A program made the position numbers and the translations under genes. Positions 587 through 6,135 of a stretch of 64,000 nt of DNA are shown here, piece after piece. This DNA comes from Escherichia phage OLB145, in the sequence record MH992123.1. One strand, 5' to 3'. The notes under the pieces were generated by a model, which was not told the origin of the DNA, did not search any database, and saw nothing but the letters and a program-made list of their open reading frames with translations. Each line of letters opens with the position of its first letter. The stretch's first letter is position 1.

Positions 587-1426
587 ATGCCTGTTCTTAA
601 AGTGATGTTTCATAAAGACACCAACGTAGCTACTGTACTGGATGCCAGTGGTAGCCTTAGTGATGGTTCCATTGAGGTGGGTACTTTCCATCATCCTGAT
701 GAAACCTATCCCGATAGTGTAACTATCTATCATGGTGTACGTGACCTGCTGTATAAACGCAGTGCTAAAGACCCATCTCAAACTGCTTCTTACCCAAATA
801 ACATTATCAATATGCAAGTTATCAGTATTGATATGAAGGCAACTCCTCGCCTAATTCTGGGTACTGCATTGCCTCGTGTAATCTCTACTATTGAAGGTAA
901 AGATGTAACCTGGCATGTAGATGTTGCTGGTGGTAAAGCACCATTGACTTACAAGTGGCAGTTTAAAGCTAATACTGTAGGTGCTGCTTTCACTGATATT
1001 GATTCCGGAGAGAATCCTACAGCTAAAACTGCAACTCTTATTAACCATGCAGTAACTGCTGAATCTGCTGGTACTTATAAAGTCATCGTTACTGATGCTA
1101 ACGGTACTACTATCGAGAGTTCTTCTCTGCTGGTTGTAGGAGTTCAGGAACCACCTGAAGTAGCTTCTATTGTTGCTTATCCAAGTCCGCTGGCTCTATC
1201 AGTAGCTGATGATATTACCGATGGTAAAACAGTTAAGTTTTCTTCCCTGCCTGCTGGCTCTTTGATTGGTACTCTGTCCATTAAGACCCAGCCTGACAGT
1301 GGTAAAGCTACTGCTGAGATTAGTGGTAATGTACTGACAGTTAAACCTGTAGCCGCAGGTGACACTACTGTAGTGGTCACCAACGGAACCAAGGAAGTAA
1401 CTGTTACGGTTAATGTTACAGAGTAA
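587..1426 (+). CDS. Ig-like domain capsid decoration protein (N4 gp17-like)
   Basis: Track ORF 554-1426; ATG at 587 has GAGGA 7 nt upstream, ATG 554 has no SD; bacterial Ig-like (Big_2-type) repeats such as 'TYKVIVTDANGTTIESS' and 'VKPVAAGDTTVVVTNGTKEVTVTVNV'; position after the RNAPII gene matches N4 decoration protein. Confidence 0.6.
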   Translation: MPVLKVMFHKDTNVATVLDASGSLSDGSIEVGTFHHPDETYPDSVTIYHGVRDLLYKRSAKDPSQTASYPNNIINMQVISIDMKATPRLILGTALPRVISTIEGKDVTWHVDVAGGKAPLTYKWQFKANTVGAAFTDIDSGENPTAKTATLINHAVTAESAGTYKVIVTDANGTTIESSSLLVVGVQEPPEVASIVAYPSPLALSVADDITDGKTVKFSSLPAGSLIGTLSIKTQPDSGKATAEISGNVLTVKPVAAGDTTVVVTNGTKEVTVTVNVTE

Positions 1427-1447
1427 TGTGATTATTTTTATGAATGT

Positions 1448-1471
1448 AGCCCTCCTTGTGAGGGCTTTTTA
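1448..1471 (+). terminator. intrinsic terminator
   Basis: 7-bp stem 1448-1454/1460-1466, loop CTTGT, T-tract 1467-1470. Confidence 0.65.
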
Positions 1472-1495
1472 GTATCTATAGGAGAGTAAATAATT

Positions 1496-1810
1496 ATGGC
1501 TAATAAGAGCCGTCTTCGTGTATGGCATATCCCTCAAGTACCCGGCAAAGCCTTCTATGTTGAAGTAGATTCAGTAGAAGAAGGTGTACGTATCATTGAT
1601 ATACTAGCCAACTATGACCTATTCCAGTATGAGAACAACATCAAAGGTGATTACTGCAATGTCTCTGGTTTACAGATGTATGATGAACATATCACTGATG
1701 ATGAAATGGAAGAGATGGGTCTGACTGAACGTTGGGTAGACTGGTACTATGAAGATGACCAGAGCTTTTTTGATAACCCGAAAGAGTATTTGAATAATCT
1801 CAAGAAGTAA
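1496..1810 (+). CDS. hypothetical protein
   Basis: 104-aa ORF with AGGAGAG SD upstream of ATG 1496; acidic C-terminus. Confidence 0.6.
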   Translation: MANKSRLRVWHIPQVPGKAFYVEVDSVEEGVRIIDILANYDLFQYENNIKGDYCNVSGLQMYDEHITDDEMEEMGLTERWVDWYYEDDQSFFDNPKEYLNNLKK

Positions 1811-1850
1811 TTTCTTGGGGTTAATGACCCTTATTAATTCCTTATCCTTT

Positions 1851-1874
1851 GCCCTCCATAGGAGGGCTTTTTTA
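1851..1874 (+). terminator. intrinsic terminator
   Basis: Perfect 7-bp stem GCCCTCC/GGAGGGC (1851-1857/1861-1867) followed by TTTTTT. Confidence 0.7.
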
Positions 1875-1884
1875 CGGAGTACAA

Positions 1885-2091
1885 ATGTTTAAGTTCTTAG
1901 ACCTTATCTGGGCAGTCATTTTGCTGGTTGCTACAGGCTTTGTATATGGCTTCTTGCTCCCATCAATGATGTCTGCTTTAGACAGCATCATTGTTGTTAT
2001 GGGCTTGATAGTCTGTATTGTGTGGCCTCTTATCGTAGGCCGTATCGTTTATCTTACAGTTAAGAAAAGGATGAGAAGAAAGCATGTATAA
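1885..2091 (+). CDS. small two-TM membrane protein, translationally coupled to downstream SPFH gene
   Basis: Track ORF starts at TTG 1849 inside the terminator; first ATG 1885 has GGAG 4 nt upstream; product 'MFKFLDLIWAVILLVATGFVYGFLLPSMMSALDSIIVVMGLIVCIVWPLIVGRIVYL' is two hydrophobic helices; stop overlaps next start (ATGTATAA). Confidence 0.55.
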   Translation: MFKFLDLIWAVILLVATGFVYGFLLPSMMSALDSIIVVMGLIVCIVWPLIVGRIVYLTVKKRMRRKHV

Positions 2092-2920
2092 GTATATTGC
2101 AGTAGCAATTGCAGGGCTAATCATTGCTCTAAGTTTAACGAGCTGCTATGACCGAGTTGAACCAGGTAATGTAGGTATTATCGTTAACCGTCTCGGTGAA
2201 GATAAAGGTGTGGAAAATGAGGTTAAAGGTGTAGGCCGTTACTGGCTCACTTGGAATGAAGAACTTTATACATTCCCGACCTTTAAGCAGATGAAGACCT
2301 ATGATGGTCTGTTCTACTTCCAACTGTCTGATGGTACTCAGATAGGTCACCAGATGGCTATCAGCTATAAAGTGAACCCTACTAAGGTAACTAATATCTT
2401 CCAGACGTATCGTAAGGGAGTTAATGAAATTACCGAGCAGGATTTACGACAACGTATTGCTGATGTACTTAACAGACAGGGTAACTTGATTAACACTGAT
2501 ACCTTTATTGATGGTGGTAAATCTAAGCTACTGGATAGTGTCACTGACACAATCCGTAAAGAGATGGAACCAGTGGGGATTGATATTATTGCTATCTCCT
2601 GGATTGGTGCTCCTGAATACCCTGACAACGTTAAACGTGCCATTAATGCCAAAGTAGAAGCTACTCAGAAAACTCTGCAACGTGAGCAAGAGATTCAGCA
2701 ACGTGTAGCTGAAGCTAATATGGAACGTGAACAAGCTAAGGGTGTAGCAGATGCTATTCTGATTAAGGCTAAAGCAGAGGCTGACGCTATTCGTTTACGT
2801 GGTGAAGCACTCACCGAGAACCCAAATGTAATGCAACTGGAAGCCATTAATAAGTGGAATGGTACATTACCTACCACAATGATTCCTGGGGCTACTACAC
2901 CTTTCGTTAATGTGAAATAA
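2084..2920 (+). CDS. SPFH/band-7 (stomatin/prohibitin-like) domain lipoprotein
   Basis: N-terminal signal with lipobox 'LSLTSC'; SPFH-like core; C-terminal coiled coil 'KAKAEADAIRLRGEALTENPNVMQLEAINKWNGTLP', resembling the prohibitin/HflC C-terminus. Confidence 0.6.
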   Translation: MYKYIAVAIAGLIIALSLTSCYDRVEPGNVGIIVNRLGEDKGVENEVKGVGRYWLTWNEELYTFPTFKQMKTYDGLFYFQLSDGTQIGHQMAISYKVNPTKVTNIFQTYRKGVNEITEQDLRQRIADVLNRQGNLINTDTFIDGGKSKLLDSVTDTIRKEMEPVGIDIIAISWIGAPEYPDNVKRAINAKVEATQKTLQREQEIQQRVAEANMEREQAKGVADAILIKAKAEADAIRLRGEALTENPNVMQLEAINKWNGTLPTTMIPGATTPFVNVK

Positions 2921-2926
2921 CTAAGC

Positions 2927-2957
2927 AAACCCACCATTACGGTGGGTTTATTTTTTT
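2927..2957 (+). terminator. intrinsic terminator
   Basis: 9-bp stem AAACCCACC/GGTGGGTTT (2927-2935/2941-2949), then TTTTTTT. Confidence 0.7.
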
Positions 2958-2983
2958 GAAGTTATCTAACACTGGGTATTCCT

Positions 2984-3208
2984 ATGAAAGTAAATGTTTT
3001 ACGTCGTAAGAAAGTTCCTTTCTTTCAAATCAATTGTGGTTCATGTTTTCAACACGATGATGACTACTATATGAAGTGTAGTTATCAATCTAAAGAACAC
3101 TTCTACGGTGTGAATTTACAAACAGGGCATCTGTTCACATTTGATAATAATGACTTTGTTTATCCTGTGACTTTAGAAGCATGTATTCCTGACCCGCTTA
3201 ATAAATAG
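2984..3208 (+). CDS. hypothetical Cys-rich small protein
   Basis: 74-aa ORF; 'CGSCFQHDDDYYMKC' suggests a small zinc-binding motif. Confidence 0.4.
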   Translation: MKVNVLRRKKVPFFQINCGSCFQHDDDYYMKCSYQSKEHFYGVNLQTGHLFTFDNNDFVYPVTLEACIPDPLNK

Positions 3209-3209
3209 T

Positions 3210-3566
3210 ATGGCTCAAGAAAAGAATCGTCGTCAGACACTTATCGAACGTATTCAGGCCAGAATCAAATTACAGGACTTAGGCTATACCGTTAATGGTC
3301 AGCCTAGTCTCTGTCACATCTGGACTGGTTCACATTCAGGTAATGGACGTGGTGGGCAATATGGCAGGATTTCCGTGAATGGAGTTACCTCTGCAACTCA
3401 CATTATTGCCTATACCCATTATCATGGTTATATCCCCAATAAGATGCAAGTAGACCATCTCTGTAATAACCGTCTGTGCTGTAACCCTGAACATCTTGAA
3501 TTGGTTACTCACCAAGAGAACCAGAGAAGAAGGGCTAAGCGTTCTAAATCTAAAGGAAATAAATAA
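3210..3566 (+). CDS. HNH homing endonuclease
   Basis: 'HIIAYTHYHGYIPNKMQVDHLCNNRLCCNPEHLELVTHQENQ' is a complete HNH_3-type motif with a basic C-terminal tail. Confidence 0.75.
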   Translation: MAQEKNRRQTLIERIQARIKLQDLGYTVNGQPSLCHIWTGSHSGNGRGGQYGRISVNGVTSATHIIAYTHYHGYIPNKMQVDHLCNNRLCCNPEHLELVTHQENQRRRAKRSKSKGNK

Positions 3567-3766: not shown

Positions 3767-4825
3767 ATGGCTAGTATTGATTCTATTGCCGTATGTAATC
3801 CACGGCAGGTACGTAAATTTGTTGAACACTGTATCCGTTCAGGATTGGTTCCATTTATCACTTCATCCCCTGGCATGGGTAAATCTGCAATTGTTCATCA
3901 GATTGCAGAAGATTTTGGCCTGAAACTGATTGACCATCGTCTGTCTACTTCAGCACCAGAAGACCTGTCAGGTCTGCCTCGTTTTAAAGAAAATGGTCGT
4001 GCTGAATTTGCTCCATTTGATGAGCTATTCCCACTGGAAGGGGATGCTGTACCTGAAGGATTTAATGGCTGGCTTCTCTTTCTCGATGAGTTTAACTCTG
4101 CTCGTAAAGAGATTCAGGCTGCTGCTTATAAACTGGTACTCGACCGTATGACCGGTCAGAAGAAGCTACATCCTTATGTAGCTATCGTATGTGCTGGTAA
4201 CAAAGCAACTGACCGTGCCATTACTAATAACCTGTCTACAGCTATGCAATCACGTCTTATTCATCTGGAAATGGAGACTGATTTTGATGTCTTCATGGAA
4301 GATGTAGCCATCCCTAATAAGTGGGATGAGCGTGTAATTGCATTCCTGAATGCTAACCCAAATAAACTGAATGATTTTGAACCAGACCATCAAGAGAAGA
4401 CTTTCTGTTGTTCTCGTACATGGGAGTTCGTTAACAAGATTGTTTCCATTCTCCCACCAGGACCAATTGATAGTGAAATGACTCTACTGTTAGCAGGCAC
4501 TATCACTTCTGGTGTAGCAACATCATTCGTCCAGTTTACTCAGGTCTATAGCAACATGGTGTCTTTGAATGAGATTTTGGATAATCCTAAGAAAGCTCGT
4601 ATGCCTGAAGACAATAACCTGTTGTGGGCTGTAGTCACTTCACTGATTAACAATACTGACGAAGATAATCATTCGAAAATCTTTGATTACGTTGAACGTA
4701 TGCCATTTACGTTCAAGGTTTTGTACTACCGTTCCGTAGGTAGTCTGGTTCCAGCTTTAGTTAAATTACCGAACTGGCGTGTTGCTGCAATCACATTATC
4801 TAAATACGTTCATGGTTCCAATTAA
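3767..4825 (+). CDS. AAA+ ATPase, MoxR-like (N4 gp24-like)
   Basis: Walker A 'SSPGMGKSAIV', Walker B 'LLFLDEFNSA', sensor-like 'VAIVCAGN'; GGAGAG SD. Confidence 0.7.
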   Translation: MASIDSIAVCNPRQVRKFVEHCIRSGLVPFITSSPGMGKSAIVHQIAEDFGLKLIDHRLSTSAPEDLSGLPRFKENGRAEFAPFDELFPLEGDAVPEGFNGWLLFLDEFNSARKEIQAAAYKLVLDRMTGQKKLHPYVAIVCAGNKATDRAITNNLSTAMQSRLIHLEMETDFDVFMEDVAIPNKWDERVIAFLNANPNKLNDFEPDHQEKTFCCSRTWEFVNKIVSILPPGPIDSEMTLLLAGTITSGVATSFVQFTQVYSNMVSLNEILDNPKKARMPEDNNLLWAVVTSLINNTDEDNHSKIFDYVERMPFTFKVLYYRSVGSLVPALVKLPNWRVAAITLSKYVHGSN

Positions 4826-4991
4826 TAAGAAGGGAGTTACAGACCTCCTGTATGTTGCTGGCTTTAACGGTGAAGAAATTACCGTATATGCCCCAAGTCT
4901 GGCTGCTGCTAAACAAAAGGCAGTTGAATACTTTCGTCCAAAGAAACGTGTAGCCCATACTATTTGGGTTCATCTCGCAGAGGAAAACTGA
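4812..4991 (+). CDS. hypothetical small protein
   Basis: Track ORF 4779-4991 overlaps the AAA+ gene; only in-frame ATG is 4812 (no SD, overlaps upstream stop). Confidence 0.3.
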   Translation: MVPINKKGVTDLLYVAGFNGEEITVYAPSLAAAKQKAVEYFRPKKRVAHTIWVHLAEEN

Positions 4992-4992
4992 T

Positions 4993-6135
4993 ATGTCCAT
5001 GACAGATGCTCAATTAACCCGTGAATATGACAGATGTCAGGCTAAAGCCTTTATGGGCAAAACTGCTGCATTCTTTGGTTCACTGTTATGTTCCCTGAAG
5101 TTCCGTTGGGTAAAAGATGGCTGTGATACAGCACAAACCGATGGTGAGCATCTCGAATGGAATCCTGATTGGTTTGAAAGTCTATTACCTGAATCTCGTG
5201 TAACAGTACTTATGCATGAACTATGGCATGTTGGCTTACTGCATTCTGTTCGTATGGGTTCTCGTGACCCAGAAGTATGGAATTATGCCTGTGATATTTA
5301 TATCAACAATCAGCTTATTCAGGATGGCTACAGCTTTATAGGAATCGAAAATTGCTGGAAAGACCCTAAGTATGCTGGTTGGGCTGAAGAACAAATCTAT
5401 GATGACCTCATGAGCAAACAGATACGTCCTCCTAAAGCACATGGTGCTTTTGGGACTGGCTCAGGTGGTGACATGAAATCTTCCACTTCGAAGGCTAGTC
5501 AGGTGAATATTGTCAATAATGTAGTAAGAGCCATGCACCAACAGAAACTATCTGGTGGCTCTTTGCCTGGGGTATTACCTGGAAAAATGGAAGAAGTTAT
5601 TACTCAATTCCTGAAACCAGTAGTACCGTGGCAGGTTTTACTTGAACGCTTCTTCAATGACCTGCAAGAAACTTACTACTCATGGCAACGGCCTAATCGT
5701 AGATACCCTGATATGTACCTACCATCTCCTATGGATGATGACGGTAGACTGGAACATCTGGCTTATTTCCTCGATACATCTGGCTCCATTAAACCTAAAG
5801 ATGCTTTACGCTTTAGCTCTGAAGTGGCCTATGTAAAAGAGAAATATCAGCCTCAGAAGATGACTCTAGTTCAGTTCACTACAGAGATTGTAGACGAACA
5901 AGTCATTGAAGATGGTGATAAGTTTACTGATGTCACTATCAAAGGACGAGGTGGTACTAGTCTGGTTCCTGTACGTGAGTGGATTATTAAGCATAAGCCT
6001 ACTGCTGCCATTATCTTTACTGACTTAGAAGTCAGACCGATGGAGCCATTGCCATTTGACATTCCTGTCATATGGGTAGTTATTCGTAACCCTGGTGCAC
6101 AAGTTCCATTTGGGAAAATTATTAACATTACATGA
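4993..6135 (+). CDS. von Willebrand factor A domain protein with N-terminal HExxH metallopeptidase-like motif (N4 gp25-like)
   Basis: 'VLMHELWHVGLLH' (HExxH); MIDAS-like 'LAYFLDTSGSI'; SD GAGGAAA; adjacent to the AAA+ ATPase. Confidence 0.65.
   Translation: MSMTDAQLTREYDRCQAKAFMGKTAAFFGSLLCSLKFRWVKDGCDTAQTDGEHLEWNPDWFESLLPESRVTVLMHELWHVGLLHSVRMGSRDPEVWNYACDIYINNQLIQDGYSFIGIENCWKDPKYAGWAEEQIYDDLMSKQIRPPKAHGAFGTGSGGDMKSSTSKASQVNIVNNVVRAMHQQKLSGGSLPGVLPGKMEEVITQFLKPVVPWQVLLERFFNDLQETYYSWQRPNRRYPDMYLPSPMDDDGRLEHLAYFLDTSGSIKPKDALRFSSEVAYVKEKYQPQKMTLVQFTTEIVDEQVIEDGDKFTDVTIKGRGGTSLVPVREWIIKHKPTAAIIFTDLEVRPMEPLPFDIPVIWVVIRNPGAQVPFGKIINIT

Follow-up and report, generated by a model that had tools for sequence, protein, structure and literature searches.

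The window analysed here, a stretch of 64,000 nucleotides (nt) of Escherichia phage OLB145 (sequence record MH992123.1), carries at positions 1885-2920 two overlapping open reading frames (ORFs) that sequence comparison identifies as genes 19 and 20 (gp19 and gp20) of coliphage N4. Nucleotide identity over positions 1400-3300 is 98.3% to N4, 99.8% to vB_EcoP_3HA13 and 99.2% to the BASEL phage AlfredRasser. In the N4 RefSeq record (NC_008720), 1885-2091 maps to gp19, 'membrane protein', and 2084-2920 to gp20, 'lipoprotein'; the gp20 protein of the window is 99.6% identical to that of N4. Taken together, the data below identify gp20, very probably, as an SPFH lipoprotein and gp19 as its dedicated partner with two transmembrane (TM) helices. 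The pair comprises the following features:

1885-2091, forward strand: N4 gene 19, 68 amino acids (aa), a predicted inner-membrane helical hairpin (ORF, AlphaFold, PHROG 1130 with E=2.7e-20, family alignments)
1960-1962, 1972-1974 and 2002-2004, forward strand: the family-invariant gp19 residues Pro26, Ser30 and Gly40, respectively (family alignments)
2084-2091, forward strand: the 8-nt gp19/gp20 overlap, ATGTATAA, with the gp20 ATG inside the end of gp19
2084-2920, forward strand: N4 gene 20, 278 aa, an SPFH/Band-7 lipoprotein of the prohibitin/HflK/C-like cage-subunit type (Pfam, PHROG, AlphaFold, Foldseek)
2084-2146, forward strand: signal peptide (residues 1-20) and lipobox L-T-S-C, with Cys21 at 2144-2146
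2153-2713, forward strand: SPFH (Band_7) domain, residues 24-210 (Pfam, predicted secondary structure)
2624-2818, forward strand: long coiled-coil-type helix, residues 181-245 (AlphaFold, match to 6iqe)
2852-2872, forward strand: C-terminal K-W-N-G-T-L-P motif, residues 257-263 (family alignment), followed by a low-confidence tail

The SPFH assignment of gp20 is supported at the levels of both sequence and predicted structure. The Pfam Band_7 profile (PF01145) matches residues 24-210 from profile position 2 to 175 of 176, with 84 bits against a cut-off of 23.6 (E=1.7e-23), and the protein falls in PHROG 200, 'lipoprotein' (E=6.8e-95). An AlphaFold model built with 50 homologues (mean predicted local distance difference test score, pLDDT, 78.2) has beta-strands from residue 22, an SPFH alpha/beta core, the single helix 181-245, a short helix at 248-256 and a tail with a pLDDT of about 52. 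An SPFH-like core had been proposed in a first-pass annotation made from the DNA letters and their ORFs; the profile match and the SPFH fold, which is predicted with confidence, bear this out. The same annotation described a C-terminal coiled coil ending in KWNGTLP. Helix and motif are both present, but the motif stands 15 residues short of the C-terminus and not at the end of the protein.

Foldseek searches of the PDB with the gp20 model returned 63 chains at E<=0.001, the best 50 of them SPFH-family or vault chains, with the closest matches to the human prohibitin complex (E=4.5e-14), HflK/C, erlin and stomatin. The alignments with prohibitin, HflK/C-FtsH, erlin and stomatin subunits extend over 240-300 columns (E 1e-14 to 1e-10), and nearly the whole chain also aligns with erlin1/2, flotillin and QmcA-YbbJ. 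At the sequence level, the sole PDB match is to the coiled coil of prohibitin-2 (PHB2; 6iqe, E=0.0022). Residues K257, W258, G260 and P263 of the C-terminal motif are invariant in a 10-sequence alignment reaching from N4 to homologues from Staphylococcus and crAss-like phages. As modelled, gp20 shows all the architectural elements of a cage-forming SPFH subunit: the core, a helix of about 65 residues and the conserved KWxGxxP motif. Tails of the kind found at its C-terminus cap the cage in solved SPFH complexes, and the low pLDDT of the gp20 tail would be expected if it folds only in the oligomer.

The lipoprotein signal noted in the first-pass annotation is also present. Residues L18-T19-S20-C21 form the lipobox, followed by Tyr at +2 and Asp at +3, and Cys21 would be the acylated N-terminus after cleavage. 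This cysteine is invariant in the 10-sequence alignment, which includes distant phage homologues (25-81% identity), and a lipobox occurs in about 107 of 120 close gp20 homologues. Signal peptide and lipobox give gp20 a lipid anchor in place of the TM helix or hairpin usual among SPFH proteins. About nine of the 120 close homologues have Gly-Tyr instead of Gly-Cys at the lipobox (...MGIIGYDRVEPG...), such that no lipidation is expected; these proteins would keep an uncleaved inner-membrane anchor. Elsewhere, enterobacterial members have almost exclusively Tyr, Asp or Glu at +2, and Pseudomonas members have Ser.

The small two-helix membrane protein of the first reading is likewise recovered. 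gp19 has two hydrophobic segments (residues 7-25 and 34-52) and is modelled by AlphaFold as a helical hairpin of helices 4-29 and 34-67 (mean pLDDT 79.8), with Ser30-Asp33 at the turn. Its layout is a first TM helix at about 4-29, a turn at 30-33, a second TM helix at about 34-55 and a basic C-terminal tail, KKRMRRKH, and the modelled hairpin exposes only about four residues to the periplasm. Because both tails are net basic and the loop net acidic (positive-inside analysis), the predicted topology is N-in/C-in, which puts the conserved residues at the inner membrane's periplasmic surface. The only invariant residues of the family, Pro26, Ser30 and Gly40, cluster at this periplasmic turn, whose consensus reads G-x-h-h-P-x-[LM]-[IV]-S-[SA]-x-[DN]-[TDS]-h-x-V-x-x-G. 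The PHROG group of gp19 is labelled 'membrane protein'.

Pairing of gp19-type and SPFH genes

A single-sequence search with gp19 retrieved just two proteins; the family surfaced only when partner ORFs were collected upstream of SPFH loci, by inspecting neighbourhoods and re-calling ORFs, and then used in profile searches. We define the module as an SPFH lipoprotein gene together with a small two-TM hairpin ORF, 47-133 aa long and in most cases about 60-90, that lies directly upstream on its strand, usually overlaps it and carries the motif G-x3-P-x-[LM]-[IV]-S-x2-[DN]-x6-G. Motif, strand and overlap are all found in gp19-gp20 of the window. A two-TM ORF with the gp19 loop motif lies just 5' of the SPFH gene in N4, Moo19, a P1-like phage and a Pseudomonas phage, and a Vequintavirinae phage has a gp19-type ORF upstream of its SPFH gene, one ORF removed.

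This arrangement is highly consistent. The partner ORF is present in 78 of the 80 IMG/VR loci closest to gp20, and, out of 201 sequence sources, a profile hidden Markov model detects it in 187, without exception upstream of the SPFH gene and on its strand. Most partner matches (176/188) lie within 60 nt of the SPFH match, and the sources that have no partner are either truncated loci or carry SPFH homologues of at most 34% identity. Stop/start overlaps, mostly of 4, 8 or 20 nt, account for 97 of 121 unique pairs; a further 13 have a 3-nt gap and nine an inserted ORF. The partner sequences in these loci are diverse, with 85 distinct sequences in 24 clusters at 50% identity.

In a scan of one genome per species, 29 full-length SPFH homologues reached 35% identity or more, and 27 of them had the partner; they come from Enterobacterales, Sutterella, Pseudomonas, Luteibacter/Dyella, Methylumidiphilus, Leptospira, Saprospirales, Bacteroidales and an actinobacterium. 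Where SPFH identity is below 35%, recognisable or variant two-TM ORFs were seen in part of the Caulobacterales and Sphingomonadales loci. The reciprocal look-up, starting from the small-protein profile, led to a Dyella prophage and to Vibrio, both of which (2/2) have a Band_7 gene immediately 3' in phage-like surroundings. gp19 and gp20 are co-inherited across very distant lineages.

The small-protein family is large in its own right. An exhaustive profile search gave at least 285 clusters at 50% identity (E<=1e-3); the best 150 members are all 47-133 aa long, and none of these 150 is a gp19-SPFH fusion of the 'Rosetta stone' kind. One apparent 359-aa fusion (L142) proved to be an out-of-frame ORF-extension artefact. 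The core of the turn motif, P-x2-h-S-x9-G, is present in 171 of 175 family members. All proteins retrieved by the family profile are unnamed and have no Pfam domain, and the small partner genes seem often to be overlooked by gene callers. Unannotated family ORFs of 62 and 67 aa, for example, occur in the Shiga toxin (Stx) 2a-converting phage Stx2_95 (L004, about 2253-2441) and the crAss-like phage cr128_1 (L011, 1754-1957), respectively. In one Shigella flexneri and one E. coli chromosome (L207, partner at 524-730; L208, partner at 515-721), the partner lies about 775 nt from the SPFH gene (match at 1501) and has an altered C-terminus; an insertion looks to have split the module in these two cases.

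Expression, genomic setting and prevalence

The module was originally described as bracketed by terminators, and terminator-like hairpins with T-runs do stand on both sides of it:

1851-1873, forward strand: upstream terminator-like hairpin GCCCTCC-ATA-GGAGGGC (7 pairs, 6 GC) and T-run, closing the gp18 unit
1876-1879, forward strand: Shine-Dalgarno sequence GGAG of gp19, 5 nt before the ATG, read from the sequence
2927-2956, forward strand: downstream terminator-like hairpin AAACCCACC-ATTAC-GGTGGGTTT (9 pairs, 5 GC) and T-run, closing the gp19-gp20 unit

The hairpins proper occupy 1851-1867 and 2927-2949. Since the gp19 Shine-Dalgarno sequence starts only 2 nt past the upstream T-run (1868-1873), there is no room for a separate promoter between the terminator and gp19, and expression of the module must therefore rely either on read-through or on a promoter that overlaps the terminator. 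The ATG at 1885 is likely the gp19 start, because translation from the alternative TTG at 1849, just 5' of the hairpin, would have to cross it. The overlap of the gp20 ORF with the stop of the 68-aa ORF, also pointed out in the first reading, is present at 2084-2091. As the start codon of gp20 falls within the end of gp19, and overlap is kept in most homologous pairs, the sequence indicates that the two genes are translationally coupled.

Terminator-like sites are frequent in this part of the genome (11 in 6 kb, versus 3.9 +/- 2.2 in shuffles), with further hairpins at 508-533, after gp16, and 1448-1466, after gp17. gp16, gp17, gp18 and gp19-gp20 each have their own terminator-like hairpin and T-run, giving a string of single- or two-gene units. 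A weak terminator-like site within gp19 (2020-2045) was taken as a chance match. Sigma-70-like promoter sites are not enriched, with 11 found and 17.2 expected.

On its 5' side the module is preceded by the RNAPII large subunit gp16, the decoration protein gp17 and gp18; on its 3' side follow gp21, the HNH endonuclease gp22, gp23, the AAA ATPase gp24 and the vWA protein gp25. The first-pass annotation had placed it in the early region of a lytic phage. This does not hold: the module follows the RNAPII genes gp15/gp16 on their downstream side and belongs to the left half of the N4 genome, which is spanned by the middle transcripts that RNAPII produces. By position, therefore, gp19 and gp20 are middle rather than early genes. 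Further downstream, at 3767-6135, gp24 (PHROG 1297) is followed by a 380-aa protein labelled 'HNH endonuclease' in RefSeq. This protein appears to resemble the vWA/metallopeptidase-type partner common in N4-like phages, making the RefSeq product name doubtful.

Across genomes, gp19-gp20 is an accessory two-gene cassette common to many phages and prophages. The gp22 HNH endonuclease gene (3210-3566) lies 3' of the module in N4 and Moo19. Other N4-like contigs have an HNH gene (at about 1640-2302) 5' of the module, immediately next to it in L014 and at a distance of about 330 nt in L013 and L015-L017. A homing endonuclease on either flank could link the cassette to horizontal spread. In the P1-like phage vB_EcoM-Ro157c2YLVW (L003, 2233-3277), the module stretch lies between dmt and a gene annotated 'DNA primase/helicase', with an Asn/Tyr/Thr tRNA cluster 5' of the module and a tRNA-Met directly 3', a setting consistent with a moron-like accessory cassette.

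Homologues of gp20 were detected by tblastn in 702 of 50,697 phage records, spread over Kayviruses, Pseudomonas, Erwinia and Klebsiella phages, P1-like and Stx-converting phages, phiCbK and crAss-like phages. Among complete E. coli genomes, 737 of 5,426 (13.6%) carry a homologue, about half of them on chromosomes (prophages) and about half on plasmids of roughly 90-230 kb; the Prokaryotic Genome Annotation Pipeline (PGAP) names the two members of the pair 'SPFH domain-containing protein' and 'hypothetical protein'. Phage records label gp20 'SPFH domain-containing protein' (VEc25, PMBT57), 'predicted HflC' (Moo19) or 'putative SPFH domain protein' (GenBank records of N4 relatives), and SPFH domains of phage genomes have appeared in annotation tables since 2006. 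The SPFH identification of gp20 is thus already public and not new. Many gp20 homologues are recorded as 'serine protease'; this label is wrong for gp20-type genes, and together with the frequently missed small upstream ORF it marks where annotation stands to gain. A link between gp19 and gp20 as a module was not found in the records, family libraries and papers searched.

Relation to known SPFH systems

Prohibitins (PHB1/PHB2; 8RRH, 9O9Z) are the best structural match to gp20, at about 16-18% identity in the structural alignment, and the PHB2 coiled coil also supplies the sequence match described above. One gp20 homologue is named 'prohibitin family protein' in GenBank. HflK/HflC-FtsH (7VHQ, 7WI3, 9CZ2) shares the same whole-subunit fold (Foldseek E 1e-13 to 1e-10) and the order of SPFH core, long helix and C-terminal cap segment. 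gp20 may also lie, like HflK/C, on the inner membrane's periplasmic side: signal peptide and lipobox predict export, and although Tyr at +2 makes the choice between inner and outer membrane ambiguous for N4, Asp at +2 in close homologues favours the inner one. According to the literature, FtsH or m-AAA proteases are regulated by HflK/C and prohibitins, both facing the same side of the membrane. The phage system differs from HflK/C in gene number and in anchor. While hflK and hflC form a tandem pair of paralogues, gp20 is a single SPFH gene preceded by a gene for a 68-aa non-SPFH hairpin. Furthermore, gp20 has a lipid anchor instead of an N-terminal TM helix, so that TM helices, if any, come from gp19.

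Hinderhofer et al. (2009) described an SPFH4 or p-prohibitin group that probably faces the periplasm and has no NfeD partner. The gp20 lipobox, the KWxGxxP motif and the dedicated two-TM partner are not part of that published description. A more distant relative of the module is found in Staphylococcus Kayviruses, where the gene for the gp20 homologue MbpS (identity about 30%, covering 88% of the length) is likewise preceded by an overlapping gene for a small membrane protein, MbpV. In contrast to gp19, MbpV is a single-TM protein with a long charged tail, and the gp19-family profile does not detect it. The Kayvirus genes also differ in standing beside lysis genes and in serving a Gram-positive host, which has neither periplasm nor Lol sorting. 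The sole comment on function found in the literature is the speculation that MbpS might aid Sec-dependent export.

Membrane location and possible function

From its sequence and model, we infer that gp20 is exported, lipidated at Cys21 and held directly against the inner membrane's periplasmic face, since no flexible tether separates Cys21 from the first beta-strand, which starts at residue 22 in the AlphaFold model. Three features favour the inner membrane for the family as a whole, namely this lack of a tether, a partner that is an inner-membrane hairpin with few exposed residues, and the translational coupling of the two genes. We propose that gp20 oligomerises into a ring or cage on the periplasmic inner-membrane face, in the manner of HflK/C or prohibitin, and that gp19 binds under the cage rim through its periplasmic turn. 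gp19 would supply in trans the TM helices that gp20 lacks, and which HflK/C and prohibitin carry in cis. It may also itself hold the lipoprotein in the inner membrane; this is the main uncertainty of the model. The assembly would then enclose an area of the inner membrane of infected cells or lysogens. An inner-membrane ring or cage containing both proteins is probable in our judgement, and we favour, with somewhat more caution, the full proposal in which this structure acts on a conserved inner-membrane function.

Superinfection exclusion, membrane remodelling and control of a host membrane protease or defence system had been suggested as possible functions in the first-pass annotation. As to the target, the phages that carry the module, both lytic and temperate, are unrelated in their injection and lysis machineries, and their hosts span several phyla, which argues for a universal inner-membrane function; a phage-specific receptor block seems less likely. 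An inner-membrane quality-control machine of the FtsH type would be the leading candidate, with general membrane stabilisation during infection as the other option. By analogy with HflK/C and prohibitin, FtsH or membrane homeostasis can be suggested as the target only tentatively.

Several points weigh against this proposal. The AlphaFold models are of monomers, and we infer both the oligomerisation of gp20 and its contact with gp19. Similarity to the E. coli K-12 proteins is marginal (BLASTP: HflK, 21% identity, E=0.083; HflC, 20%, E=0.007), the NCBIfam hflC model TIGR01932 scores 19.6 bits against a cut-off of 134.4, and no hflK match was obtained from NCBIfam, so that the connection with FtsH is one of analogy only. 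We rejected gp20 as an HflK/HflC orthologue in view of these identities, the score far below the hflC cut-off and the presence of one SPFH gene. The annotated neighbourhoods show the module at differing positions in unrelated genomes, and given this accessory nature any role is probably conditional. No functional study of gp19, gp20 or their homologues was found in the literature; what was searched on phage SPFH proteins, N4 gp20 and SPFH in superinfection exclusion gave only annotation tables and the speculation on MbpS, recent gene-essentiality preprints lying outside the coverage. Finally, N4-type proteins read C-Y-[DEQ] and the Vequintavirinae homologues C-E-R, and the canonical +2 rule would send both (Tyr and Glu, respectively) to the outer membrane.

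The last of these points is also the case for an independent outer-membrane role of gp20. Asp at +2 is the Lol-avoidance signal of E. coli, and canonically it is only Asp that retains lipoproteins in the inner membrane. Aromatic residues at +2 can reportedly retain them too; a citable statement to this effect was sought and none was found. Against an outer-membrane role, the close prophage and P1-like homologues (62-65% identity) read C-D-R, with Asp at +2, and some close homologues have no lipobox cysteine at all, so a function shared within the family points to the inner membrane. Additionally, gp20 has no tether between Cys21 and its folded domain, and its coupled partner exposes so little to the periplasm that it could only touch a protein on the inner membrane. 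We therefore consider an outer-membrane role improbable. A second alternative concerns gp19, which could be a minimal NfeD in a phage version of the SPFH-NfeD operons (QmcA-YbbJ, Pyrococcus PH1511/PH1510, B. subtilis YuaG/YuaF). The first-pass annotation had drawn this comparison, and the gene arrangement supports it: in both, a small membrane-protein gene is co-transcribed with an SPFH gene, here with overlap, and QmcA-YbbJ (8Z5G) has an SPFH subunit fold like that of gp20 (Foldseek E=4.4e-08). The likeness does not extend to the partner. gp19 belongs to an unrelated, unnamed family without a Pfam match, gives no match to PF01957 at E<=0.1 and, with only 68 aa, cannot accommodate the OB-fold domain. 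gp20 is predicted to be exported rather than cytoplasmic, and NfeD partners accompany the cytoplasm-facing SPFH1/2/5 groups, with none known for the periplasm-facing HflK/C and prohibitin-like groups. Membership of gp19 in the NfeD family is refuted on these grounds, and a phage SPFH/NfeD operon is almost certainly not what the module represents.

Two further explanations concern the function of the module. In superinfection exclusion, gp19-gp20 would block DNA entry of later phages at the envelope, like T4 Imm/Sp, P22 SieA or T5 Llp. Both are envelope proteins made before lysis, their carriage by E. coli prophages and phage-plasmids is the typical setting of exclusion genes, and P22 SieA provides a precedent for the blocking of injection by an inner-membrane protein. 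Moreover, the neighbouring gp18 (1496-1810) falls into Pfam PF17420, 'Superinfection exclusion gene product 17' (E=9.8e-56), and a gp18 homologue also adjoins an SPFH lipoprotein gene in the unrelated Ackermannviridae phage PhiSH19. In that phage (L092), the homologue lies at 2638-2958 on the reverse strand, about 200 nt upstream of the SPFH gene (1641-2432), with no gp19-like ORF between them. However, known exclusion proteins are each specific to one injection apparatus, whereas the module occurs in podo-, myo- and siphoviruses and crAss-like phages, with hosts of several phyla. gp19 and gp20 have no similarity to known exclusion proteins, and PADLOC-DB models gave no match for gp18, gp19, gp20 or gp21 at E<=0.1. 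The PF17420 label is a family name, and adjacency to gp18 is confined to three phages (N4, Moo19 and PhiSH19) among about 200 loci; a tblastn search of about 90 loci with gp18 was positive only for N4 and Moo19, the PhiSH19 pair being seen besides. A role of P22 gene 17 did not emerge from the papers covered, and the gp18 link was dropped as functional evidence. Exclusion is, overall, an unlikely explanation.

Control of lysis timing, in which a holin- or antiholin-like gp19 or other lysis proteins are organised or restrained in membrane microdomains by the SPFH scaffold, is less likely still. gp19 resembles class II holins in its length of about 65 aa, its two TM helices, N-in/C-in topology and basic C-terminal tail, but these features are generic and insufficient for membership. 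One gp19-family member is called 'Holin' in UniRef, and Pfam Phage_holin_3_6 gives a sub-threshold match to gp19 (E=0.044; 14.3 bits versus a cut-off of 28.4), no holin family being matched above cut-off. Kayvirus mbpS and mbpV adjoin the endolysin gene lysK, and the authors of that work liken MbpV to holins, but MbpV is not a detectable member of the gp19 family. The annotated 2-6 kb flanks contain no lysis gene in the N4, Moo19, P1-like, Stx, BIS47 (Vequintavirinae) and Pseudomonas phages examined, and the window neighbours gp18, gp21, the HNH endonuclease and the AAA ATPase are not lysis genes. The invariant family residues are at the periplasmic turn and not in the TM helices, and a lethal holin would be odd cargo for such widespread prophages and plasmids. 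A role in lysis timing accordingly receives little weight. The first-pass annotation had held that its reading would fall if the module were a known virion component; nothing marks gp19 or gp20 as such, and an exported lipoprotein is unlikely to be a capsid or tail part.

These comparisons leave an inner-membrane SPFH ring or cage with a TM partner as our favoured account of gp19-gp20. A bolder version of it, which we regard as speculative, is a hitherto undescribed, self-sufficient two-component membrane cage on the periplasmic inner-membrane face that phages have spread across bacterial phyla and that captures or shields a universal host machine, or sets lysis timing. The candidate machines would be an FtsH-type protease, Sec/YidC or membrane-damaging abortive-infection effectors, and gp19 would double as an in-trans anchor overriding Lol sorting of the lipoprotein.

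SPFH cages, including HflK/C, prohibitin, stomatin, flotillin and erlin, are under intense structural study, and their working principle is debated; we know of no role assigned to the viral members. What is new here, a two-TM partner that is conserved and unnamed and the wide occurrence of the module, is a modest addition that describes a variant type of SPFH operon. If the two-component cage were borne out, it would add a novel class of partner to the SPFH operons, and a viral SPFH protein would for the first time have a defined function. A minimal module of one SPFH gene and a 68-aa partner, in a tractable model phage, offers a simple system for studying enclosure by SPFH cages and the use that phages make of it.

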